Shown here piece by piece: positions 14,215-56,151 of a stretch of 64,000 nucleotides of DNA (position 1 is the stretch's first letter; each line of letters starts with the position of its first letter). The stretch lies in IMG/VR virus record IMGVR_UViG_3300032117_000007. One strand, written 5' to 3'. The position numbers and the translations under genes were made by a program. Origin of the DNA: an uncultured virus (IMG/VR IMGVR_UViG_3300032117_000007) (taxonomy: Duplodnaviria; Heunggongvirae; Uroviricota; Caudoviricetes). The notes under the pieces were generated by a model that had not been told where the DNA came from, searched no databases, and was given only the letters and a program-made list of their open reading frames with translations.

Positions 14215-14886
14215 ATGCGTCTGATTACCGAACTATTCGAGGAAATTGAATATATTTCTGAAGCAAAGGAAAATGGCGAGAAAGTCCATTATATTCATGG
14301 ACCATTTATGCAAGCAGAGGTAGTTAATCGCAACGGTAGATCATATCCAATTCATGTGATGGAAAAGGCCGTTCAGGCTTATCACGACAGTCATATCAGT
14401 CAAGGTCGCGGTTATGGAGAACTTGGACATCCTCAAGGTCCACAAATCAATTTGGATAGAGTTTCACATCTTATTACAGATTTAAAGCGCGATGGTGATT
14501 CTCACACTTTTATTGGTAAAGCAAAACTTACCGATACACCCATGGGTAATATTGCAAAAGGTCTTTTAAGTTCTGGTGCTAAGCTTGGTGTATCTTCTCG
14601 AGGTATGGGTTCTTTGGAACCAAAAGATGGTGTAATGGTTGTTCAACCAGATTATCAATTAGCTACTGCTGCTGATATTGTTGCTGATCCATCTGCTCCT
14701 GGTGCATTTGTGAATGGTGTAATGGAAAATGTTGAATGGATTTATGATCCAGTCCATGGTACATGGAAGGAAGAAAAACTTCACAATATCAAGAAGTCAA
14801 TTAGAAAAATGACAATGAATGAAGTTGAACAGAACAAACTTGCCATCTTTGAAGGATATATTAATTTGTTGGTGTCAAAGAGATAA
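14215..14886 (+). CDS. gp21: Prohead protease gp21
   Basis: NRNGRSYP, GELGHP, LGVSSRGMGSL, ADIVADPSAP. Confidence 0.96.
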   Translation: MRLITELFEEIEYISEAKENGEKVHYIHGPFMQAEVVNRNGRSYPIHVMEKAVQAYHDSHISQGRGYGELGHPQGPQINLDRVSHLITDLKRDGDSHTFIGKAKLTDTPMGNIAKGLLSSGAKLGVSSRGMGSLEPKDGVMVVQPDYQLATAADIVADPSAPGAFVNGVMENVEWIYDPVHGTWKEEKLHNIKKSIRKMTMNEVEQNKLAIFEGYINLLVSKR

Positions 14887-28313: not shown

Positions 28314-28585
28314 TGATTGAAGAAAAAGCAAAAAACCACGAACACCTTCAGAAAGAATGGAGAAATCCATATATGCAATGGTATGCCGCAGGTATGCCAG
28401 CATTTGTTACTAAGGATTTGTCACCATATAAACAACTTATTGTGAAGTTTAAAACGATGGAAGATCGTAATGCTTTTGCCGAACTCGTTGAGCAAAAGAT
28501 TACAGAAAAAACAAATGTTATATGGATTCCTATGAAGGAACGAGAAAATAATATTGATTCGAAGTGGATTGAAGATGATGTATGA
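28313..28585 (+). CDS. Hypothetical protein associated with glycosyltransferase
   Basis: W...GMPAF...YKQLIVKF...EDR..FAELVEQKITEKT..IW.P. Confidence 0.6.
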   Translation: MIEEKAKNHEHLQKEWRNPYMQWYAAGMPAFVTKDLSPYKQLIVKFKTMEDRNAFAELVEQKITEKTNVIWIPMKERENNIDSKWIEDDV

Positions 28586-29512
28586 TACTCGATATCCAAT
28601 TTATATTATTTCGAAAGGCCGTTGGGATAGTCGATACACCTCAAAAGCATTAGAACGGATGGGTGTTCCATATTATATTGTTGTTGAACCACAAGAATAT
28701 GATAACTATGCTGCTGTAATCGAGCCAACAAAGATTCTTACACTTCCCTTTTCAAATCATGGTAAGGGTTCTGGACCTGCAAGAAATTGGTGCTGGGAAC
28801 ATTCTCAAGCTAATGGTTTCAAACGTCATTGGCTTATGGATGACAATATCTATGAATTCTGGCGTTTCCATAATAATAAACGATATCGTATTGAAAAAGG
28901 TTCGGCATGCTTTAGAGCAGCAGAGGATTTTGTAGATCGGTTTGAAAACGTAGCTCTTGCAGGACTCCAATACAAATTTTTCTGTGTTGATGATTATCTT
29001 TACCCGCCATATATTCTAAATACCAGAATTATGTCATGTTTCTTGATTGACAATTCTTGCCCACACAAATGGCGTGGAAGATACAATGAGGACGTTGATC
29101 TTTCGATTAGAGTCTTGAAGGAAGGTCTATGCACCATGCTTTTCTATTCCTTCCTTTGTGGAAAAGCAAGAACTGGAACAATCAAGGGTGGTAATACATC
29201 TGAAATCTATAATAACTATCAGGAAGATGCTTCGTTCAAGAAATCTGAAATGCTTTTACAGATGCATCCGGATGTAGTACAACTTGCAGAACGATATGGT
29301 CGTGTTCACCATCTTGTTGATCTTGAAGCCATTATGACAAAAGATGGGACTCTTGCAAGAAATACACCTCTTATTTTAAAGAAAGATGCAAAAATTGTCA
29401 ATGCAGTTGACAATTATGGTATGAAACTAATTCGGAATTATAACACACCTGAAGCATATGAGGATGTGAATTTTTCAAAGGATGTATATCCGACTGGGAG
29501 AAAGAAATACTA

Positions 29513-29513
<1 letters not shown>
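28575..29513 (+). CDS. GREB1-like/TET-associated glycosyltransferase family protein
   Basis: YPIYIISKGR, IVVEPQEY..Y, ARNW.W, W.MDDNI, WRGRYNEDVDLS, GGNT. Confidence 0.7.
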
Positions 29514-30369
<856 letters not shown>

Positions 30370-39137: not shown

Positions 39138-39343
39138 GTGTCCTTAGCTCAGTTGGATAGAGCAACAACTAAAAAATTTAGTTATTCTATCTAGTTTAGA
39201 AGAAATAAAACAGTTTGCTCTTATGGTGAAATAGGATATCACACGGGTCTTCTAAACCCAGATTCTAGGTTCGAGTCCTAGTGAGAGCGCCAACCTATCT
39301 TCTAAGCTGTGGGCCGGTGGTTCGAATCCCCTACGGGATACCA
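39138..39343 (+). pseudogene. Split/degenerate tRNA-Arg(TCT): 5' half 39138-39169, 3' half 39299-39343
   Basis: GTGTCCTTAGCTCAGTTGGATAGAGCAACAAC ... CTTCTAAGCTGTGGGCCGGTGGTTCGAATCCCCTACGGGATACCA, with an intact tRNA in between. Confidence 0.7.
39217..39292 (+). tRNA. tRNA-Arg(TCT)
   Basis: Acceptor GCTCTTA/TGAGAGC, D stem GTGA/TCAC, loop CTTCTAA, T arm CTAGG-TTCGAGT-CCTAG, CCA. Confidence 0.9.
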
Positions 39344-39369
39344 ACTTAAACTTATGTGGAGAATACAAT

Positions 39370-39591
39370 ATGAATAAGCCTGCTACTGATCGTGTGTTTG
39401 CTCTTTTGGAACGTGGACAATCCTTGACGGCCGAACAAATTTCAAACCGTTTTAATGTAAGTAACCCATATCATGTTGTATATTCATTGCGAAATCGTGG
39501 TCTAAATATTATTACTACACCTCATACTATTCGTGGTAAGACGGTATCTAAGTATAGTTATATTGCGCCACGATCTAGGAAGAAGATGTAA
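39370..39591 (+). CDS. Winged-helix/HTH DNA-binding protein
   Basis: LL.RGQSLT..QI..RF.V......VYSLR.RG..I. Confidence 0.6.
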   Translation: MNKPATDRVFALLERGQSLTAEQISNRFNVSNPYHVVYSLRNRGLNIITTPHTIRGKTVSKYSYIAPRSRKKM

Positions 39592-39600
39592 AACAAGTTT

Positions 39601-39675
39601 TCGGGTGTAGCTCAGTGGTAGAGCAATCGGCTGTTAACCGATCGGTCGTAAGTTCGAATCTTACCACCCGAGCCA
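39601..39675 (+). tRNA. tRNA-Asn(GTT)
   Basis: Canonical cloverleaf, loop CTGTTAA, CCA. Confidence 0.95.
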
Positions 39676-39689
39676 GTTTGCCGGATTAG

Positions 39690-39832
39690 TAACAAGCGGT
39701 TCCTAGGTCTGCTTGGGTCTGTACCGGTAGAGGATCCCGACACCTCTATAAAAACGCGGAGGTTTGCCCCTCAAGGGGAATAACCGGTCACTCCGGTTCG
39801 AGCTGGGCGATCTCGTGAAACTGCCCTAGCCA
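39690..39832 (+). ncRNA. Candidate structured RNA ending in CCA within tRNA array
   Basis: GC-rich, several hairpins and a possible pseudoknot, no ORF, flanked by 19-bp direct repeats. Confidence 0.5.
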
Positions 39833-39836
39833 GTTT

Positions 39837-39911
39837 GCCGGATTAGCACAGTGGTAGTGCAGCGGTTTTGTAAACCGAAGGTCGGGAGTTCAAATCTCTC
39901 ATCCGGCACCA
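39837..39911 (+). tRNA. tRNA-Thr(TGT)
   Basis: GCCGGAT/ATCCGGC acceptor, loop TTTGTAA, CCA. Confidence 0.95.
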
Positions 39912-39918
39912 AATTGTT

Positions 39919-40005
39919 GGGGATGCGGCACAGTTGGAGAGGTGCGGCAGACTGTAAATCTGTTCCTTAATTGGTGAGTTAGTTCGAATCTGACGATCCC
40001 CACCA
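39919..40005 (+). tRNA. tRNA-Tyr(GTA)
   Basis: Loop CTGTAAA, long variable arm, CCA; G7:G66 mismatch and C at position 8. Confidence 0.8.
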
Positions 40006-40099
40006 AATAAGTTTGATCTAGATACGATTGGGAAGTCTCTGGTCGTCGCGATGCTAGACAACATTCAGGCCAAGTCGTGCGGCCTAGTTTTATAATAAA

Positions 40100-40191
40100 G
40101 GAAGTGTGACCGAGAGGCCTATGGTAGCGGTTTGCTAAACCGCCGAACTCTACTAGGGGTTCCGAGGGTTCGAATCCCTCCTCTTCCGCCA
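40100..40191 (+). tRNA. tRNA-Ser(GCT)
   Basis: Loop TTGCTAA, long variable arm, G discriminator, CCA. Confidence 0.92.
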
Positions 40192-40196
40192 ATTAT

Positions 40197-40273
40197 CAGG
40201 GAATAGCTCAATCTGGCAGAGCATTGCGTTTGGGACGCAAAGGTTGCAAGTTCAATTCTTGCTTCCCTGACCA
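40197..40273 (+). tRNA. tRNA-Pro(TGG)
   Basis: CAGGGAA/TTCCCTG acceptor, loop TTTGGGA, CCA. Confidence 0.93.
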
Positions 40274-49226: not shown

Positions 49227-49275
49227 AAAAAATATTATTTTAAAATAATAACAATTTTATTGTATAAATAAATTC

Positions 49276-49422
49276 ACATGAGCATACATTATGCGCTTCA
49301 TGAAGCGTAAGAGGCACAGAGACTATAATAGCAAAGGAACAGTCGGGGATCATAGGTGGGGTTCCTCCCGGCATTGTATGCTTTTAAAGAAGGTCGGCTC
49401 GAAAGGGTCGACCTTTCTTTTT
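49276..49422 (+). ncRNA. Candidate standalone late ncRNA with terminator
   Basis: TATAAATA at 49263; closing stem GAGCATACA/TGTATGCTT; internal hairpin and pseudoknot; GAAA-loop terminator 49386-49422. Confidence 0.6.
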
Positions 49423-49429
49423 ATAAATA
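49422..49429 (+). promoter_or_regulatory. Late promoter TATAAATA
   Basis: Exact consensus upstream of the 49465 cluster. Confidence 0.75.
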
Positions 49430-49464: not shown

Positions 49465-50232
49465 ATGCTAACATTCTCTAAATTAAAAAATATTCTTTCT
49501 GAAGAATTGACACCAGATCAAAGAGAGCATTTTAATTCAATTAAAAGAGATCCTAATGCAGTTGCAGCAACTGCTCATTTTTTTGGCAAAGGTAATGATG
49601 TTGTATCAAAAGAACTTGAAGCTTATTTTGAAGAATCAGTGCAAAAAACTGCTCATTTTTTTGATGTTGACGAGACACTATTTGCACATGATCCGAAAAA
49701 ATTAAGAATCCATGTTCGTGATTCAAATGGCAATATTGTAAAAAGTTTGTCTAATCAACAATTTAATAAAAATAAATTAAATCCGGGTGAACGATACGAT
49801 TTCAAGGATTTTAAATCATCTAAGAAATTTGCAAGCACTGCTAAACCAATTCCAAAAATGATCAATTTATTAAATAGATTGAAAAATTCTGGTCATAATA
49901 CTTCAATACTTACTGCTCGATCAGATCTTGATGATAAGCAAAAATTTGCTCATACGATGAAAAAATATGGTATAGATATATCTAAAACACATGTATACAG
50001 AGCAGGGAATGTTGAAGGTACTTCTACAGGTGATAGAAAAAGAAAAGTATTATCAGATCTTATAAAGAAACATGGTTATAATGAAATTCATCTTTATGAT
50101 GATGATTTGGGGAATCATGAACATTTTGCTAAACTCAAAGAAGATCATCCAGGTGTTAGACTATATTCACATATAGTTACACATAATGATCACACAGGCC
50201 AAACAACAATTAAAACTATCAGACATCAATAG
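49465..50232 (+). CDS. HAD-family phosphatase (Pnkp/Swiss-army-knife-like)
   Basis: FFDVDETL (DxDxT), LTARS, K, YDDD..N. Confidence 0.75.
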   Translation: MLTFSKLKNILSEELTPDQREHFNSIKRDPNAVAATAHFFGKGNDVVSKELEAYFEESVQKTAHFFDVDETLFAHDPKKLRIHVRDSNGNIVKSLSNQQFNKNKLNPGERYDFKDFKSSKKFASTAKPIPKMINLLNRLKNSGHNTSILTARSDLDDKQKFAHTMKKYGIDISKTHVYRAGNVEGTSTGDRKRKVLSDLIKKHGYNEIHLYDDDLGNHEHFAKLKEDHPGVRLYSHIVTHNDHTGQTTIKTIRHQ

Positions 50233-50245
50233 GGATTGAAAATAG

Positions 50246-51241
50246 ATGTTAAAATTTACTGAATTTCAAATCATTGCAGAATCTAAAATGACGGCTTCTG
50301 GTTTTGTAGGCAATCGTCATTTTGAAAAATATGTAAAACCATATTTGTCCGGAGCTGCTAAGCATTCAAAGCAAGGCACACATATTATGGCCTCAAAACA
50401 TGATGATTTAAATGTAGGTGAACAAGTAACATTACATTCTCATCATATTGATGATAAAGGTGTCCATCATGTAACAGTAAGTCGACCTGGCTCAAGAAAA
50501 AAAATTACTGTGCCTATTTCAAAGTTAGATAAGCCTGGGGCCCAAACAGAAAATGAAGGCCATAAGTATGAAAAACATTTTTTTAATAGATGTAGAAATA
50601 TAGGTCTTGTACCTCCCGGCCATAATCCTGCAGGTTCTACAGCTGGAACAGATGTCCCATTTTTAAATAAAAAGAAAGGAACAATTCATAAAGGCCGGGC
50701 TATATATAATGGTGAAGTAAAGCTAAACGAAACCGCGGCACTTGGACAAGGTACAATTAAATTTGGAAAACATCCTAAAACAGGTAAGGTGGGATGGCAT
50801 ATTCCCGATGAATTACGAGATGCAAGACCAGAATATGCTAAAGCAATAGAAGAAAGAGGTATTTTAGAATATATGAATAAACATCATCCGGATCCGGATG
50901 CAGTTGAAACTACTGCTTCAGGTAGAGCAAGAAGCATTACAATGCCACACCCGGATTTATCACCAGCTGAAGCGTATTTGAAAGATCATGATGCTGATGT
51001 TGTTCACATAGGTGAAGGTCATGGAACATATAGAGTAGGAAGTAAAGATAAAACTGGTTTTGGACTCCCAAGATTAAAAGGAAAAGGAAAATGGACCATT
51101 CGTCAAAAGCAAGAAGGTAATAAAAGATCCAGAACTGTTATGTTTCAAATTCATGGAAAACACGGTTTAATTAGAAGTCCTATAAATTTAGATCGTGATG
51201 ACCATTTACAAGATTTTGCAAAACATTTAGGACATTCATAA
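50246..51241 (+). CDS. Putative PD-(D/E)xK nuclease-fold protein
   Basis: GHKYE helix, GTDV, NGEVK, then GQ. Confidence 0.5.
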   Translation: MLKFTEFQIIAESKMTASGFVGNRHFEKYVKPYLSGAAKHSKQGTHIMASKHDDLNVGEQVTLHSHHIDDKGVHHVTVSRPGSRKKITVPISKLDKPGAQTENEGHKYEKHFFNRCRNIGLVPPGHNPAGSTAGTDVPFLNKKKGTIHKGRAIYNGEVKLNETAALGQGTIKFGKHPKTGKVGWHIPDELRDARPEYAKAIEERGILEYMNKHHPDPDAVETTASGRARSITMPHPDLSPAEAYLKDHDADVVHIGEGHGTYRVGSKDKTGFGLPRLKGKGKWTIRQKQEGNKRSRTVMFQIHGKHGLIRSPINLDRDDHLQDFAKHLGHS

Positions 51242-51242
51242 A

Positions 51243-52472
51243 ATGTTAACATTTAGAAATTTTCTTATAGAGAATGAAGAATCTGCTACAGGTAAACCTC
51301 TCACTCATCTTCGTCATCTAGAAGATAATATTCTTTATGATGGTCATGAAGGTGTAAGAAGAGCATCAAAATTTTTAGATGATGCGCACAATCATCTTCT
51401 TGGGAAAGAAACATCAACTCATATTTCAACAAAATATGATGGTGCTCCAAGTATAGTATATGGAACACATCCAGAAACTGGAAAATTCTTTGTAGCTTCC
51501 AAATCTGCTTTTAATAAAAATCCAAAAATCAATTATACAAATGAAGATATTGAACGAAACCATGGTCATGCCCCAGGTTTGGTGTCAAAACTCAAAGAAG
51601 CACTATATCATCTTCCAAAAATTATGCCAAAGACTGGTGGTGTTTTTCAAGGTGATATGATGCATGGAAAGGGTGATATTAAGAAAAATGGTGGAAAGAT
51701 TAGTTTTACTCCAAATACAATTACATATTCTACTGATAAAAATTCTGCTGAAGGAAGAAAAGTAACAAATTCAAAAATCGGTGTTGTAATGCATACAGAA
51801 TATAAAGGTAAAGGGCCTTTACAGAATATGTCGGCAACACCTTTGAGTGCCAAAAGAAGAGCTGAATTCATAGATCATCCGGATGTTAATAATATTGATC
51901 CTACTCAAAAGGTGAATACAAACAATTATACTCCAGAAGAACAAAAGAAATTTGCTATGCATAAAGAAGCAATTAGAAAAACATATCAGAGTATGAAGCC
52001 TGAAGCATTTGAGGCAATTCATGGTCATGAAGCGGCTTTGGAATCTCATGTAAATGATCAAGTACGAAAAGGTGGTAAACCTTCTACTGAAGGTTATATG
52101 AATTTCCTAAAAGATCGACATGAAAAGGAAATTTCTAAACTTAAAACACAAGCAGCGATTGATAGAAAGAAACAAGATTTCTCTAAGAAATTAGATCACG
52201 TGAATGCCAACAAAGAACATTTCAAGAAAATACTTGATCTTCATCATCATTTCCAAGAAGCCAAAAATATTCTTACTGGTGTAATGGCCAAAAATAGTAA
52301 GTTTGAGAATAGCATCAATGGAAAACCTACTTTACCTGAAGGTGCTGTTGCGGTTGATAAAGAAGGTAATATGACCAAGTTTGTAAATCGTGGTGAAGGT
52401 GGGTTTGCTCAGGCCAATTTGACTGGTTCTGGTGCATTTCAGAAGAAAGGGACTTCTGATGCTTCTAAGTAG
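51243..52472 (+). CDS. DUF6267-like protein with polynucleotide-ligase nucleotidyltransferase motifs
   Basis: HLRHLED, TKYDG (motif I), FQGD, PEGAV (motif IV), TKFVNR (motif V). Confidence 0.65.
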   Translation: MLTFRNFLIENEESATGKPLTHLRHLEDNILYDGHEGVRRASKFLDDAHNHLLGKETSTHISTKYDGAPSIVYGTHPETGKFFVASKSAFNKNPKINYTNEDIERNHGHAPGLVSKLKEALYHLPKIMPKTGGVFQGDMMHGKGDIKKNGGKISFTPNTITYSTDKNSAEGRKVTNSKIGVVMHTEYKGKGPLQNMSATPLSAKRRAEFIDHPDVNNIDPTQKVNTNNYTPEEQKKFAMHKEAIRKTYQSMKPEAFEAIHGHEAALESHVNDQVRKGGKPSTEGYMNFLKDRHEKEISKLKTQAAIDRKKQDFSKKLDHVNANKEHFKKILDLHHHFQEAKNILTGVMAKNSKFENSINGKPTLPEGAVAVDKEGNMTKFVNRGEGGFAQANLTGSGAFQKKGTSDASK

Positions 52473-53097
52473 AATTAAAAGGATCATTTTTGAATCATAT
52501 GAAAAGCATCATGTAACTGCTCCTTCCGTCCGATTCCAACCTCCTACGGAAGGTCATGGAGAAGTTATTGATACAGTAAAGAGTGAAGCAAAAAAAGTTG
52601 GTGGTAGTCATTCAATAGTACTATCACATTCTCATGATGCTAAAAATCCACTCACACCTGAACAAAAACTCAAACATGCCAAAAGAGCATGGCCAGATAT
52701 GAATATATCTACATCATCTGTTGAACAACCAACTTTGCTTCATCATCTTGCAAATCTTCACAAACAAGGTGTAACACATGTAACTGTTGTTGGTGGTCAA
52801 GATAGAGTGGAAGGATTCCGGAATCTCATACACAAGTATAATGGACAAACTGGTGCCCATGGCTATTATAATTTTAAAGGGATCAATGTTGTATCGGCAG
52901 GTGAAAGAGATCCAGACGCGGAAGATGTAACAGGTATTTCCGGAACCAAAATGAGAGCCGCGGCAGAAAGGGGTGATAAAGAAACATTTCATGCTGGAGC
53001 ACCATCAAATATGACACCAGATCAAAAAGATGAAATGATGAGAGATGTTCAGAATGGTATGAAAAAGTTTGAAAAGAAAAAAATAAGTAAAAAATAG
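52459..53097 (+). CDS. Cytidylyltransferase-like (HxGH) nucleotidyltransferase
   Basis: RFQPPTEGH, KNPL, VGGQDR, SAGERDPD, ISGTKMR. Confidence 0.8.
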   Translation: MLLSRIKRIIFESYEKHHVTAPSVRFQPPTEGHGEVIDTVKSEAKKVGGSHSIVLSHSHDAKNPLTPEQKLKHAKRAWPDMNISTSSVEQPTLLHHLANLHKQGVTHVTVVGGQDRVEGFRNLIHKYNGQTGAHGYYNFKGINVVSAGERDPDAEDVTGISGTKMRAAAERGDKETFHAGAPSNMTPDQKDEMMRDVQNGMKKFEKKKISKK

Positions 53098-53104
53098 GGG
53101 AAAG

Positions 53105-53686
53105 ATGATGACGGAAGAAAGAAAAGGCCTTTGGTATAATATTCATGCAAAACGTGAACGTATTAAACATGGATCTGGGGAACATATGAGAAAACCAGGC
53201 TCCAAGGGTGCACCTACACAAGCCGATTTTAAAAATTCACAAACAGAAGAAACAAAAAAACCAGAAACTTCTGATCATGCTCATGCATCTTCAAAGCATA
53301 TTAAAACACCTCAGGATAGTGAAAAACAATCTGTAAATTCATCTGATGCAGATTCAAGATTTGACGGTTCAACATCTCTTGCAAATACTTATAAATCAGA
53401 AACACCTGGTCAAATCGTCAAAAGAGTAGTTAAAGAAGCACTTTATCACGGGAAAGAAGTTCCCCTAAATAAGCCGATGAAAGGCGACGTTAAAAAGTCT
53501 AAGGTATATGTCAAAGATCCTGAAACTGGTAACGTCAAAAAAGTGAACTTTGGTGATAAACATCTCAGTATTAAGAAGGATATTCCTGCTCGGAAACGAT
53601 CATATTGTGCTAGATCATCTGGACAAGGAAATTTAACAAAGAAAACAAGTGCTAACTATTGGTCGAGAAGGGCATGGAATTGTTAA
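53105..53686 (+). CDS. Basic hypothetical head protein (DUF6321-like)
   Basis: GLWYNIHAKR...KGAPT and VKKVNFGD...RSYCAR...ANYWS modules. Confidence 0.6.
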   Translation: MMTEERKGLWYNIHAKRERIKHGSGEHMRKPGSKGAPTQADFKNSQTEETKKPETSDHAHASSKHIKTPQDSEKQSVNSSDADSRFDGSTSLANTYKSETPGQIVKRVVKEALYHGKEVPLNKPMKGDVKKSKVYVKDPETGNVKKVNFGDKHLSIKKDIPARKRSYCARSSGQGNLTKKTSANYWSRRAWNC

Positions 53687-53835
53687 AATTCAAAGAGTTT
53701 ATTACTGAACTCAAAGTTAGAGAAGCTGATGGCACCGAAATGATTATTCATAAAGTGCCTATTCGTATGGCCGATGGTAAAATTAAGAAGATGTATCCGG
53801 GTAAAAGCGGTAGTTCCGGAGGTGGAGGAAAATAA
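53674..53835 (+). CDS. Small protein with capsid-targeting-like N-terminus (53 aa, not in ORF track)
   Basis: MELLKFKEFITE...RMADGKIKKMYPGKSGSSGGGGK. Confidence 0.6.
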   Translation: MELLKFKEFITELKVREADGTEMIIHKVPIRMADGKIKKMYPGKSGSSGGGGK

Positions 53836-54251: not shown

Positions 54252-54689
54252 ATGAATGAATTAATTGAAAAGATGAAAGTTGTGCTAGCTAGCACATTTG
54301 CTTTCTATCTAAAGAGTCATGGGTTTCATTGGAATGTTGAGGGAGTATATTTCCCTCAACTCCATTCCTTTTTTGAAACAATTTATACTGATGCATGGAA
54401 AGCAGTTGATAAAATTGCAGAAGAAATTCGTACGTTAGATGCATATGCTCCTGGCAGTCTTTCAAGACTTCTTCAGTTGAGTGTTGTTGAAGATCAGATT
54501 AATATTCCTACAGCATTAAAAATGGTCAAAGAACTTGAAATTAATAATAATGCTTTAATCAATGAGCTTAGAACTGCTCAAAAATTAGCAGAAAAAACTG
54601 ATTGTGTAGGCCTAGCAAATTTCCTCCAAGACAGGATCGACAAGCACCATAAGCATGCTTGGATGCTCCGGTCAATCACAAAGAGTTAA
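54252..54689 (+). CDS. dps: Dps/ferritin-like DNA protection protein
   Basis: SHGFHWNVEG..F.QLH..F, D.IAE.IR, H.KHAWML. Confidence 0.92.
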   Translation: MNELIEKMKVVLASTFAFYLKSHGFHWNVEGVYFPQLHSFFETIYTDAWKAVDKIAEEIRTLDAYAPGSLSRLLQLSVVEDQINIPTALKMVKELEINNNALINELRTAQKLAEKTDCVGLANFLQDRIDKHHKHAWMLRSITKS

Positions 54690-54693
54690 AAAA

Positions 54694-56151
54694 ATGGAAA
54701 AATATAGATCACTAGAAAACGTTATTCGGGCTGTTGTAAAAGAAAGTGCTACTGGTTATTCCCACATGAAAGGGAATGTAACAGGCACAGATATTGGCAG
54801 TCCTATCCAGCAAGGTCCTGGTAGACCAATTGGCAGACTTCAGCATTTATCAAATATCCGTGTGCAAAATAAAGATGATGCTGCAAGAAATGCTTCTCAG
54901 AATGCAAAGAAACAACGTGAAGATACTATTGCCGATAGAAAACATGCTGAAAAAATTCGGAAACATACTGGCAAAGTATATGCGGAAGAAGAAAAAGAAA
55001 CTGATTCAGTTCCAGAAGGTACTGAAAAACGTAGAAAAGTTGAGAATGTTGCACGAGAGAATTCAGCAGAACCAACTTCAGAAAAATCAACTCTTGGAAG
55101 AAATGCAAGTATTGTATCAAAAGTTTTAGAGGAGAAACAAGCCGTGTTTTCAGATAATAAATTTGGTCTACCTACTTCAGTCATTGAAACTACCCGAGCA
55201 ATTTTGGAAAAGACCATGGAATCTCATCCTGGTGATCCAAAGAAGATTACTGCTGGTGGTAAGACTGATGTAAAGATTGAACCTTCTTTAAAGCAGTTAA
55301 CTGCTAATGAAGAAGTTAAAAAGGATAATAAGGACATTGATGGTGAGGAAAGTGGATCTGAAGAGGAAGAAAAGGAAAAATCAAAAGTAAATAAAGAAAA
55401 AAATGAACAGAAAAAGATGGCGGAAGATGTAAACTTTTCTGATGATGAACTTGAAACACTTGAAGAATTAGCTGCTTCACTTGGTTTAAATGAAGCACCA
55501 TATGGTTCAAGTGATGGCAAGCAATCATATAACACAAATGATCAAGGCGGTTCCAGAGGACTTGGACCGACAACATCTGGTTATCTTCAGGAAAAATGCA
55601 AGAAGTGCAAAAAGAAAATGTGCACTTGCGGAATGAAAGAGGAATTATCACCAAAGCAGAAGAAAATTGCTGCACTAGCTGGTAATCCTAAGAAGATTGA
55701 TGCTGAAGATTTTAAAGAACTTCGCGCACACGGTATGAAGGAAAGCAATGAAAAAAGTTTAGAAGTTCATAACACACAAGAACATCCTGGTCGTGCAAAG
55801 GAAATTGAAAAGATTATAAAGGGTGCTACAAAGAAAATTTTTGGTGAAGAATCAGTATTAGATGAAGGTCGCGGTCGACCACGAAAGAATCCTATTGAAA
55901 AGCCAGAAGATGATGATACGGAAGCAAATTCTAATGTAATCAATAGAATTCGTCAAGCCCGTAATTCTATGGCTGGTGGTGCTAAAACAACACTAAAACA
56001 CGAGAACGGTGAAGAAACAGTGTTGACACCTGATGTTGCTCGTATGCTTGATAATGCACATAATGTCAAAAGAACGCCCGCGGAAAAGGAAGCATTTGTT
56101 TCAGCTATTCGCGCTAGTCGTGCATCAATGCTTAAAGCAATGGGTCACTAA
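54694..56151 (+). CDS. Putative internal head protein (charged, low complexity)
   Basis: Lys/Glu-rich; ELSPKQKKIA...KIDAEDF module; several candidate x-x-E cleavage sites. Confidence 0.5.
   Translation: MEKYRSLENVIRAVVKESATGYSHMKGNVTGTDIGSPIQQGPGRPIGRLQHLSNIRVQNKDDAARNASQNAKKQREDTIADRKHAEKIRKHTGKVYAEEEKETDSVPEGTEKRRKVENVARENSAEPTSEKSTLGRNASIVSKVLEEKQAVFSDNKFGLPTSVIETTRAILEKTMESHPGDPKKITAGGKTDVKIEPSLKQLTANEEVKKDNKDIDGEESGSEEEEKEKSKVNKEKNEQKKMAEDVNFSDDELETLEELAASLGLNEAPYGSSDGKQSYNTNDQGGSRGLGPTTSGYLQEKCKKCKKKMCTCGMKEELSPKQKKIAALAGNPKKIDAEDFKELRAHGMKESNEKSLEVHNTQEHPGRAKEIEKIIKGATKKIFGEESVLDEGRGRPRKNPIEKPEDDDTEANSNVINRIRQARNSMAGGAKTTLKHENGEETVLTPDVARMLDNAHNVKRTPAEKEAFVSAIRASRASMLKAMGH

Follow-up and report, generated by a model that had tools for sequence, protein, structure and literature searches.

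We found that unrelated basic proteins encoded in a 64,000-nucleotide stretch of DNA from an uncultured virus (IMG/VR record IMGVR_UViG_3300032117_000007; hereafter the window) have a common N-terminus, in which aromatic or Leu residues stand three apart and are followed by L/I-x-E, and that the gene cluster encoding most of them lies behind a T4-type late promoter motif. The cluster under study comprises the open reading frames (ORFs) starting at 49465, 50246, 51243, 52459, 53105, and 53674; ORFs 2599 and 58152 lie apart from it. On the basis of comparison with phage T4, we consider it likely that this N-terminus (the leader; proteins carrying it are called tagged) is a T4-type capsid-targeting propeptide, by which the enzymes would be packaged in the head and delivered to the host. 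The head-targeting mechanism itself is a T4 classic, and a search of openly accessible literature gave no paper that connects the leader with these enzymes. The window comes from a T4-like myophage and contains the replication block along with genes for the neck, terminase, sheath, tube, portal, protease, scaffold, and capsid; its capsid protein is nearest to that of Stenotrophomonas phage DLP6 (66%) and then to the Sinorhizobium phiM12/phiN3 group (61%). Where we describe something as absent from this phage, the statement refers to the 64-kb window.

A common leader on unrelated proteins

The T4 internal proteins IPII and IPIII both start with MKTYQEFIAE, as the first-pass annotation of this DNA had stated. 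According to the available part of a review (PMC9026906), residues 4 and 7 of the T4 leader determine targeting, residues 8 and 10 determine processing, and gp21 cuts after L/I-x-E. All seven N-termini that the annotation had likened to this sequence (49465, 50246, 51243, 52459, 53674, 2599, and 58152) were found as written. A rule built from the T4 determinants was passed by 6 of the 106 window ORFs, all among these seven, and by none of 369 internal Met positions; it was formulated after the sequences had been seen and therefore describes the pattern rather than tests it. Residues 4 and 7 are aromatic or large hydrophobic in register in 51243, 2599, 50246 (F4, F7, with I-x-E at 10 to 12), and 49465 (F4, L7, with L-x-E at 11 to 13, an extended leader) and, with an offset, in 53674 and 58152. 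The L/I-x-E end is present in all seven. The idea of a shared leader thus stood for six of the seven N-termini. It did not for the degenerate leader of 52459, which fails at residues 4 and 7 (the rule fits 10 of the 14 transferase sequences in the alignment), and 49465, 50246, and 52459 score below 5 on the profile described below. Neither are the tagged cluster ORFs all consecutive, as had been proposed: the leaderless ORF 53105 intervenes.

The leader profile has nine positions and was trained on 24 distinct ligase leaders of relatives, with the present phage excluded. It gave scores of 14 to 25 for 51243, 2599 (17.3), 58152, and 53674 (13.9), and one doubtful minus-strand window ORF scored 7.6. 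For the T4 proteins IPII and IPI, the scores were 5.4 and 4.2. The low values of 49465 (3.9) and 50246 (−4.4) reflect leaders that exceed the usual length by two to three residues; P0080, a close ligase relative (71%), has the extended leader type of the window phosphatase (49465), so this type looks like a lineage variant. In one relative (G003), 4 of 173 ORFs scored at least 5, all four of them cluster genes, and in another (G004) the 3 of 240 that did so were the ligase, the transferase, and one false match. Across 68 dereplicated loci, the leader was carried by 78% of 60 ligases, 74% of 46 nucleases, 52% of 25 transferases, and 47% of 19 HAD phosphatases and by none of the control families, which were named by eye from the first member of each (0 of 28 helicases, 0 of 20 RecA, 0 of 14 polymerases, and 0 of 27 Dps). 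The leader was also seen on the ligase and transferase of the marine Melnitz phage. The leader is thus conserved in families that are not homologous to each other and is missing from those of replication and structural proteins.

The late promoter claimed for the cluster was confirmed as a sequence motif, with TATAAATA at 49422 to 49429 ahead of the ORFs and a further copy at 49263. In relatives, such a motif lies within 3 kb 5' of the ligase gene at 44 of 52 dereplicated loci compared to 3 of 52 on the opposite strand. Because the control families have no leaders and the late promoter motif is conserved at ligase loci, the leader motif is not equally common in non-late genes, a point on which the first-pass annotation had staked its reading. 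A gp22-type scaffold gene (PF25623) is present in the window alongside a gp21-type protease gene (PF03420).

The tagged enzymes also stand apart in composition. Among the 41 window ORFs of at least 150 amino acids, the five most His-rich are 50246, 2599, 49465, 52459, and 51243 (5.6 to 7.9% His versus a median of 2.0%; 10.4 to 12.3% Lys versus 7.9%), and this ranking upholds the unusual His/Lys richness noted earlier. One of the five, 2599, sits 47 kb from the cluster. In relatives, the median His content was 7.5% in 126 tagged proteins versus 2.1% in 787 others. The Melnitz homologues have 1 to 2% His, and the richness is therefore a trait of the clade.

Enzymes of the cluster and their conserved core

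ORF 50246 had no sequence-family match. Its structural model (predicted local distance difference test [pLDDT] score 91) was matched best by the restriction enzyme HhaI (6uke; Z 10.7, root-mean-square deviation [rmsd] 4.0 over 181 aligned residues, within residues 103 to 327) and second by the homing endonuclease I-Ssp6803I (Z 6.4). The predicted nuclease resembles HhaI in its PD-(D/E)xK core and differs from it in having an SH3-like domain and a leader, in its 10% identity, and in that no cognate methyltransferase was seen among the window ORFs scanned. E109, D136, E157, and K159 are invariant in the 60 aligned of 78 homologues. In the window, ATCGAT occurs once versus 16.4 times expected and GTAC half as often as expected, a pattern suggesting that host restriction sites are avoided. 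ATCGAT was dropped as the nuclease's own site because it is not depleted across the 43 carrier loci (142 observed versus 157 expected); the carriers show mild depletion of GATC, CGCG, and GTGCAC. No carrier of the nuclease or of the ADP-ribosyltransferase (ART; 2599) was found among cultured phages. A scan of prokaryote genomes, reported with the cultured-phage searches for the nuclease, the ART, and a structured RNA described below, gave three contigs of metagenome-assembled genomes only.

ORF 51243 belongs to DUF6267, a family found in 471 records of cultured phages; no paper in the literature searched mentions it by name. Judged from its model (pLDDT 84), DUF6267 is an RNA-ligase-like nucleotidyltransferase fold for which sealing is predicted. 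The best matches were 5cot (Z 8.8, rmsd 3.8, 185 aligned), 1s68 (Z 7.7, rmsd 3.8, 177 aligned), and 2hvq (Z 7.7), all of them RNA ligases; DNA ligases matched lower (2hiv, Z 6.9, and below), Foldseek hits to DNA ligases were weak, and at E 0.001 Foldseek returned no match for either this model or that of the nuclease. K64-x-D66-G67, E366-G367, K379, and the leader residue E10 are invariant in 18 sequences; we take KxDG to be motif I, EG motif IV, and the Lys motif V. The model extends no further than the last ligase motif, and no OB domain was seen. No curated RNA ligase family matched 51243: Pfam gave DUF6267 alone up to E 0.1, and NCBIfam gave nothing.

The motif of the transferase (52459) is TEGH in the window, not the HxGH given in the first-pass annotation, and G32 and H33 are invariant in 14 sequences. 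Curated NMNAT models fell below cut-off on this protein (18.3 bits versus 127). It has no Nudix or kinase fusion, and no NadV was found among the window ORFs scanned. The HAD phosphatase (49465), an accessory member of the cluster, has intact motifs (D67, D69, T150, K192, D212, and D213 are invariant across 13 sequences); a single long HAD form was found, and it is without a kinase. For the ligase, transferase, and HAD proteins, sequence searches of solved structures gave nothing useful. ORF 2599, to which the first-pass annotation had given no function, matched PF18760 at E 2e-6 (29.2 bits versus a cut-off of 31.2), with an ESM Atlas feature score of 0.94 and 193 shared features. Other tagged cargo seen in relatives (L116 3043-3840 and L131 8178-8591) includes an ART from a different Pfam family and a small protein resembling metallopeptidases. 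The earlier description of the tagged ORFs as enzyme-like thus survives for the HAD protein, the PD-(D/E)xK fold, the KxDG ligase fold, and the HIGH-family transferase but not for 53674 and 58152, which are short peptides without a family match.

Gene linkage sets some of these enzymes apart as a unit. The transferase gene follows the ligase gene directly in 57 of 57 loci with enough flank, and 76 of 79 long forms are fusions of the two. Of 43 dereplicated nuclease loci, 41 also contain the ligase, which in 36 lies no more than 180 bases away; at the remaining two, the next gene encodes another tagged KxDG protein (L108 10950-11963 and L120 10320-11273), that of L108 with weak RNA ligase matches. 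The HAD gene is found at 47 of 64 ligase loci (a redundant set) but at 4 of 43 nuclease loci. No kinase family was detected among the cluster ORFs and no P-loop pattern in the 79 long ligase forms; other transferase clusters are fused to P-loop kinases (AAA_33/Zeta). The conserved core, therefore, is nuclease, ligase, and transferase and not a Pnk-Rnl pair. Leaderless DUF6267 proteins occur in the cyanophages S-CREM2 (gp87; L085 8890-9777) and S-SZBM1 (S-SZBM1_141; L103 31477-32670). The copy in S-CREM2 is the shorter one, maps outside the late block, and is preceded by a TATAAT-like motif; it may thus be a version that is expressed early.

These features only partly fit the RNA healing and sealing proposed for the cluster. 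Like T4 Pnk-Rnl1, Rnl2, and the Naegleria nick-sealing ligase, DUF6267 has a KxDG nucleotidyltransferase fold with no OB domain seen; moreover, the HAD protein is related to the polynucleotide kinase PHROG family, and the phage has six tRNA genes. In contrast to Pnk-Rnl, the cluster has no kinase, and DUF6267 is 8 to 11% identical to solved ligases, has a large helical insertion, is late and tagged, and is obligately linked to a HIGH-family transferase. The T4 Pnk-Rnl1 enzymes are made after infection. The RNA-ligase-like fold speaks for healing and sealing; the missing 5' kinase, the rarity of HAD at nuclease loci, and the likeness of the nuclease to a DNA restriction enzyme speak against it. 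RNA repair is thus a tentative assignment for the specific role of the cargo, one that we regard as somewhat less probable than not.

Virion proteomes and competing explanations

If the T4 model applies, the leader would dock each protein in the prohead core, the gp21-type protease would cut after the leader Glu, and the mature enzymes would exit the head along with the DNA. The presumed cargo consists of a DNA endonuclease, a unit of ligase-fold enzyme and adenylyltransferase, an optional phosphatase, and an ART. The nuclease may cut host or competitor DNA, the ligase-transferase pair may seal broken nucleic-acid ends (RNA likelier than DNA), the transferase could provide or recycle an adenylated cofactor such as NAD+, and the ART might modify host proteins as T4 Alt does. 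The parallels to IPI, IPII, and IPIII are a propeptide of about 10 residues with aromatics at 4 and 7 and an L/I-x-E end, basic proteins, and a gp21-type protease, and the ART recalls Alt, which is packaged in the T4 head. Unlike these T4 proteins, the cargo consists of enzymes of 200 to 410 amino acids with no IP or Alt family match in Pfam or PHROGs; three leaders are lengthened or degenerate, and packaging, cleavage, and ejection have been shown for T4 only. It has been suggested that T4-like phages can load a variety of proteins by means of the targeting sequence (PMC9026906 and PMC3012670, available parts). Packaged ARTs and phage RNA-repair enzymes are likewise widely predicted in the portions available of PMC9503650 and PMC7824862; PMC9964418 and PMC13326640 contributed nothing further. 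As in the phage polyvalent proteins and head-packaged ARTs for which delivery with the DNA is predicted (PMC9503650, same portion), an ART-PolyVal-like domain lies by morphogenesis genes here, but in separate small tagged proteins rather than in one large multidomain or MuF-fused protein. A more specific version is an injected NAD-centered kit, in which the transferase would make or recycle NAD+ (or NAD-capped RNA) to fuel the ART and the OB-less ligase to which it is mostly joined; with the packaged restriction-like nuclease, this kit would mend cut nucleic acid and blunt NAD-depletion defenses ahead of any phage gene expression. We regard this version as speculative and unlikely.

Virion data came from a proxy, the published proteomes of three cyanophages (S-CREM2, S-SZBM1, and S-SCSM1), and all statements about these and related papers refer to the parts of the sources that were available. 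Annotated N-termini were scored by the leader profile and compared with the virion lists at thresholds of 5, 8, and 10, none of them set in advance. In S-CREM2 (PMC10665884), 6 of 7 ORFs scoring at least 5 were in virions (list of 52 of 219 proteins; P = 8e-4), including a transferase, a kinase, an S-adenosylmethionine (SAM) lyase, and, with a marginal score, an endolysin. The corresponding numbers were 1 of 3 in S-SZBM1 (PMC9146016; list of 30 of 218; P = 0.36) and 2 of 3, one of them marginal, in S-SCSM1 (P = 0.23), whose virion set consists of GenBank labels assumed to reflect the proteome of PMC9602691 (126 genes, 124 of 229 kb). Pooled, 9 of 13 leader-scoring ORFs were in virions compared to 112 of 550 others (stratified P = 3.8e-4), and P was 0.011 once the transferase was excluded. 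The transferase homologue was tagged and virion detected in all three proteomes. Virion NMNAT/cytidylyltransferase proteins of S-CREM2, S-SZBM1, S-SCSM1, and S-CBWM1 are homologous to the window transferase (tblastn E 1e-11 to 1e-28), and those of S-SZBM1 and S-SCSM1 lie in the same gene block after the helicase as in the window. NMNAT-like proteins in cyanophage virions are thus already published; the cyanomyovirus papers propose no targeting signal and leave contamination open (PMC10665884), and the transferase activity there is putative. The tagged set of the present clade differs from that of the cyanomyoviruses in adding ligase, nuclease, and phosphatase and in being His-rich.

Several observations weigh against packaging as the explanation. 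The present phage is uncultured and known from sequence alone. At a threshold of 8, the pooled P value was 0.027; enrichment was significant alone in S-CREM2 only, two of the nine virion-detected leader scorers are marginal and may not be leaders, and four small leader-scoring proteins went undetected. Leaderless proteins of the same gene block and RegA are labeled virion proteins in S-SCSM1, so contamination or another route exists, and the homologue of 58152 is labeled a virion protein there yet is leaderless. The NMNAT of S-SCSM2R is not among the nonstructural virion proteins named in the available part of PMC12801897. DUF6267 is leaderless and undetected in virions of S-CREM2 and S-SZBM1 and was not found in the S-SCSM1 stretches examined. 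Its absence fits a tag-dependent rule, and packaging of the ligase itself we infer. In addition, the cluster lacks a kinase, and the fold matches of the ligase reach only modest scores (Z 8.8 at best and 7.7 for the next, with small helical bundles up to 7.9), although the invariant KxDG, EG, and terminal Lys agree with a ligase fold. Capsid targeting as first proposed thus gains from leader conservation, the late promoter, the gp21-type protease, and the enrichment in proxy virions; for DUF6267 and the nuclease, the proxy virions give packaging no such backing, and no ligase or nuclease with a leader turned up in them.

Could these instead be ordinary late intracellular enzymes, with the leader a relic or serving another job and with abundant late proteins carried over into the virion preparations? 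Contamination is a concern of the proteome authors themselves, RegA carries a virion label in S-SCSM1, some lineages have lost the leader, and the transferase is represented by only 2 to 3 peptides in two proteomes. Against carry-over, the tagged transferase of S-SZBM1 was detected, and the untagged ligase and the untagged ORF142 directly 5' in the same block were not; furthermore, the conserved leader positions are the T4 determinants, and the leader occurs on unrelated proteins at separate loci, an ART included. We therefore consider carry-over improbable, though it is not a negligible alternative. A slightly less probable one grants packaging but has the enzymes work in the head or on the phage's incoming DNA (nick sealing and end cleaning) rather than on host immunity or RNA. 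The nuclease fold is that of a DNase, DNA ligases also match the ligase model, and the cargo proteins are basic and His-rich. RNA ligases nevertheless outrank DNA ligases, the model has no OB domain, the ART and the NMNAT-like enzyme require cellular substrates, and S-CREM2 retains its untagged ligase outside the late block.

The nuclease raises a question of its own, in that it could be a selfish homing endonuclease parked by a conserved ligase gene rather than a functional partner. In relatives, the slot 5' of the ligase is taken by many ORFs unlike one another, often leaderless; the second fold match is a homing enzyme, no methyltransferase was found among the window ORFs scanned, and carriers share no clear site avoidance. 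However, the HhaI match is far above that of the homing enzyme, 60 of the 78 nuclease family members retain the leader, and the nuclease still adjoins a different KxDG protein where DUF6267 is missing. Of the alternatives weighed here, a homing endonuclease is the one to which we assign the lowest probability.

Surroundings of the cluster and implications

The features of the window are listed in Table 1. The gene order is helicase, late promoter motif, structured RNA, terminator-like hairpin, second late promoter motif, and ORFs.

Table 1. Features of the cluster and of related genes in the window
Feature	Position	Strand	Details
ART-PolyVal-like ADP-ribosyltransferase, 204 amino acids	2599..3213	+	canonical leader; within neck-gene region
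gp21-type prohead protease	14215..14886	+	PF03420 E 5e-31; presumed processing enzyme
T4-type late promoter motif upstream of structured RNA	49263..49270	+	TATAAATA
Four-way-junction noncoding RNA candidate, conserved	49278..49385	+	coordinates from model match
Intrinsic terminator-like hairpin	49389..49420	+	12-pair stem 49389-49416, then T run; parts cluster from upstream transcription
T4-type late promoter motif at cluster head	49422..49429	+	TATAAATA, 35 nt 5' of ATG 49465
HAD-superfamily phosphatase, 255 amino acids	49465..50232	+	PF03767 E 2e-8; phrog_415 polynucleotide kinase E 1e-10
SH3-like domain plus HhaI-like PD-(D/E)xK nuclease, 331 amino acids	50246..51241	+	fold model
DUF6267 ligase-fold nucleotidyltransferase, 409 amino acids	51243..52472	+	PF19782 E 9e-89; canonical 10-residue leader
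HIGH-superfamily (NMNAT/cytidylyltransferase-like) nucleotidyltransferase, 212 amino acids	52459..53097	+	PF01467 E 2e-4, above cut-off; phrog_3041 E 9e-56
Basic protein, 193 amino acids, leaderless	53105..53686	+	
Basic peptide, 53 amino acids	53674..53835	+	good leader, offset two residues; one homologue, in L007
Peptide, 51 amino acids	58152..58307	+	leader offset three residues

The structured RNA is probably a gene of its own and a neighbor of the cluster. It carries its own late promoter motif and terminator, and in many uncultured T4-like phages its place is directly behind the helicase gene. Together with the terminator, it folds with a z of −3.4. A pattern scan gave at least 120 matches; among the matches listed, 73 distinct loci were examined, with the helicase nearby in 63 and the ligase within 2.5 kb in 38. 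The RNA adjoins the helicase even where the cluster is distant, and a role as cis-regulator of the cluster was therefore rejected. After removal of six chance-looking matches, 41 diverse copies were taken from 65; in these, the last stem shows strong covariation, as 369 of 369 cells are paired and 66 of the changes are two-sided. No Rfam family matches the RNA, T4 rnaC and rnaD were not matched when judged by eye, and the RNA was absent by blastn from the cultured phage stretches searched. Two of its conserved loops presumably resemble tRNA D- and T-loops.

Other genes of the window lie at some distance from these features. The six tRNA genes (Arg, Asn, Thr, Tyr, Ser, and Pro) are at 39217 to 40273 (+). 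A TET-associated glycosyltransferase and a nucleotide-sugar epimerase are encoded at 28575 to 30367 (+); possibly, they provide a DNA modification able to protect against a packaged nuclease. Downstream of the cluster, as in many relatives, are a Dps/ferritin-like gene and a gene for a long charged protein (54252 to 56151, +). The long charged protein and its positional counterparts have a different N-terminal pattern in common, which may be a second type of head propeptide.

The leader offers a sequence-level explanation for the adenylyltransferases, kinases, and SAM lyases in cyanophage virion proteomes, which the papers leave open, and an inexpensive way to predict head cargo in a phage group that is widespread. 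DUF6267 is given a ligase fold, and its function becomes testable with one purified protein. If the NAD-centered kit were true, the injected proteome of aquatic T4-like phages would be readable from sequence via the leader.

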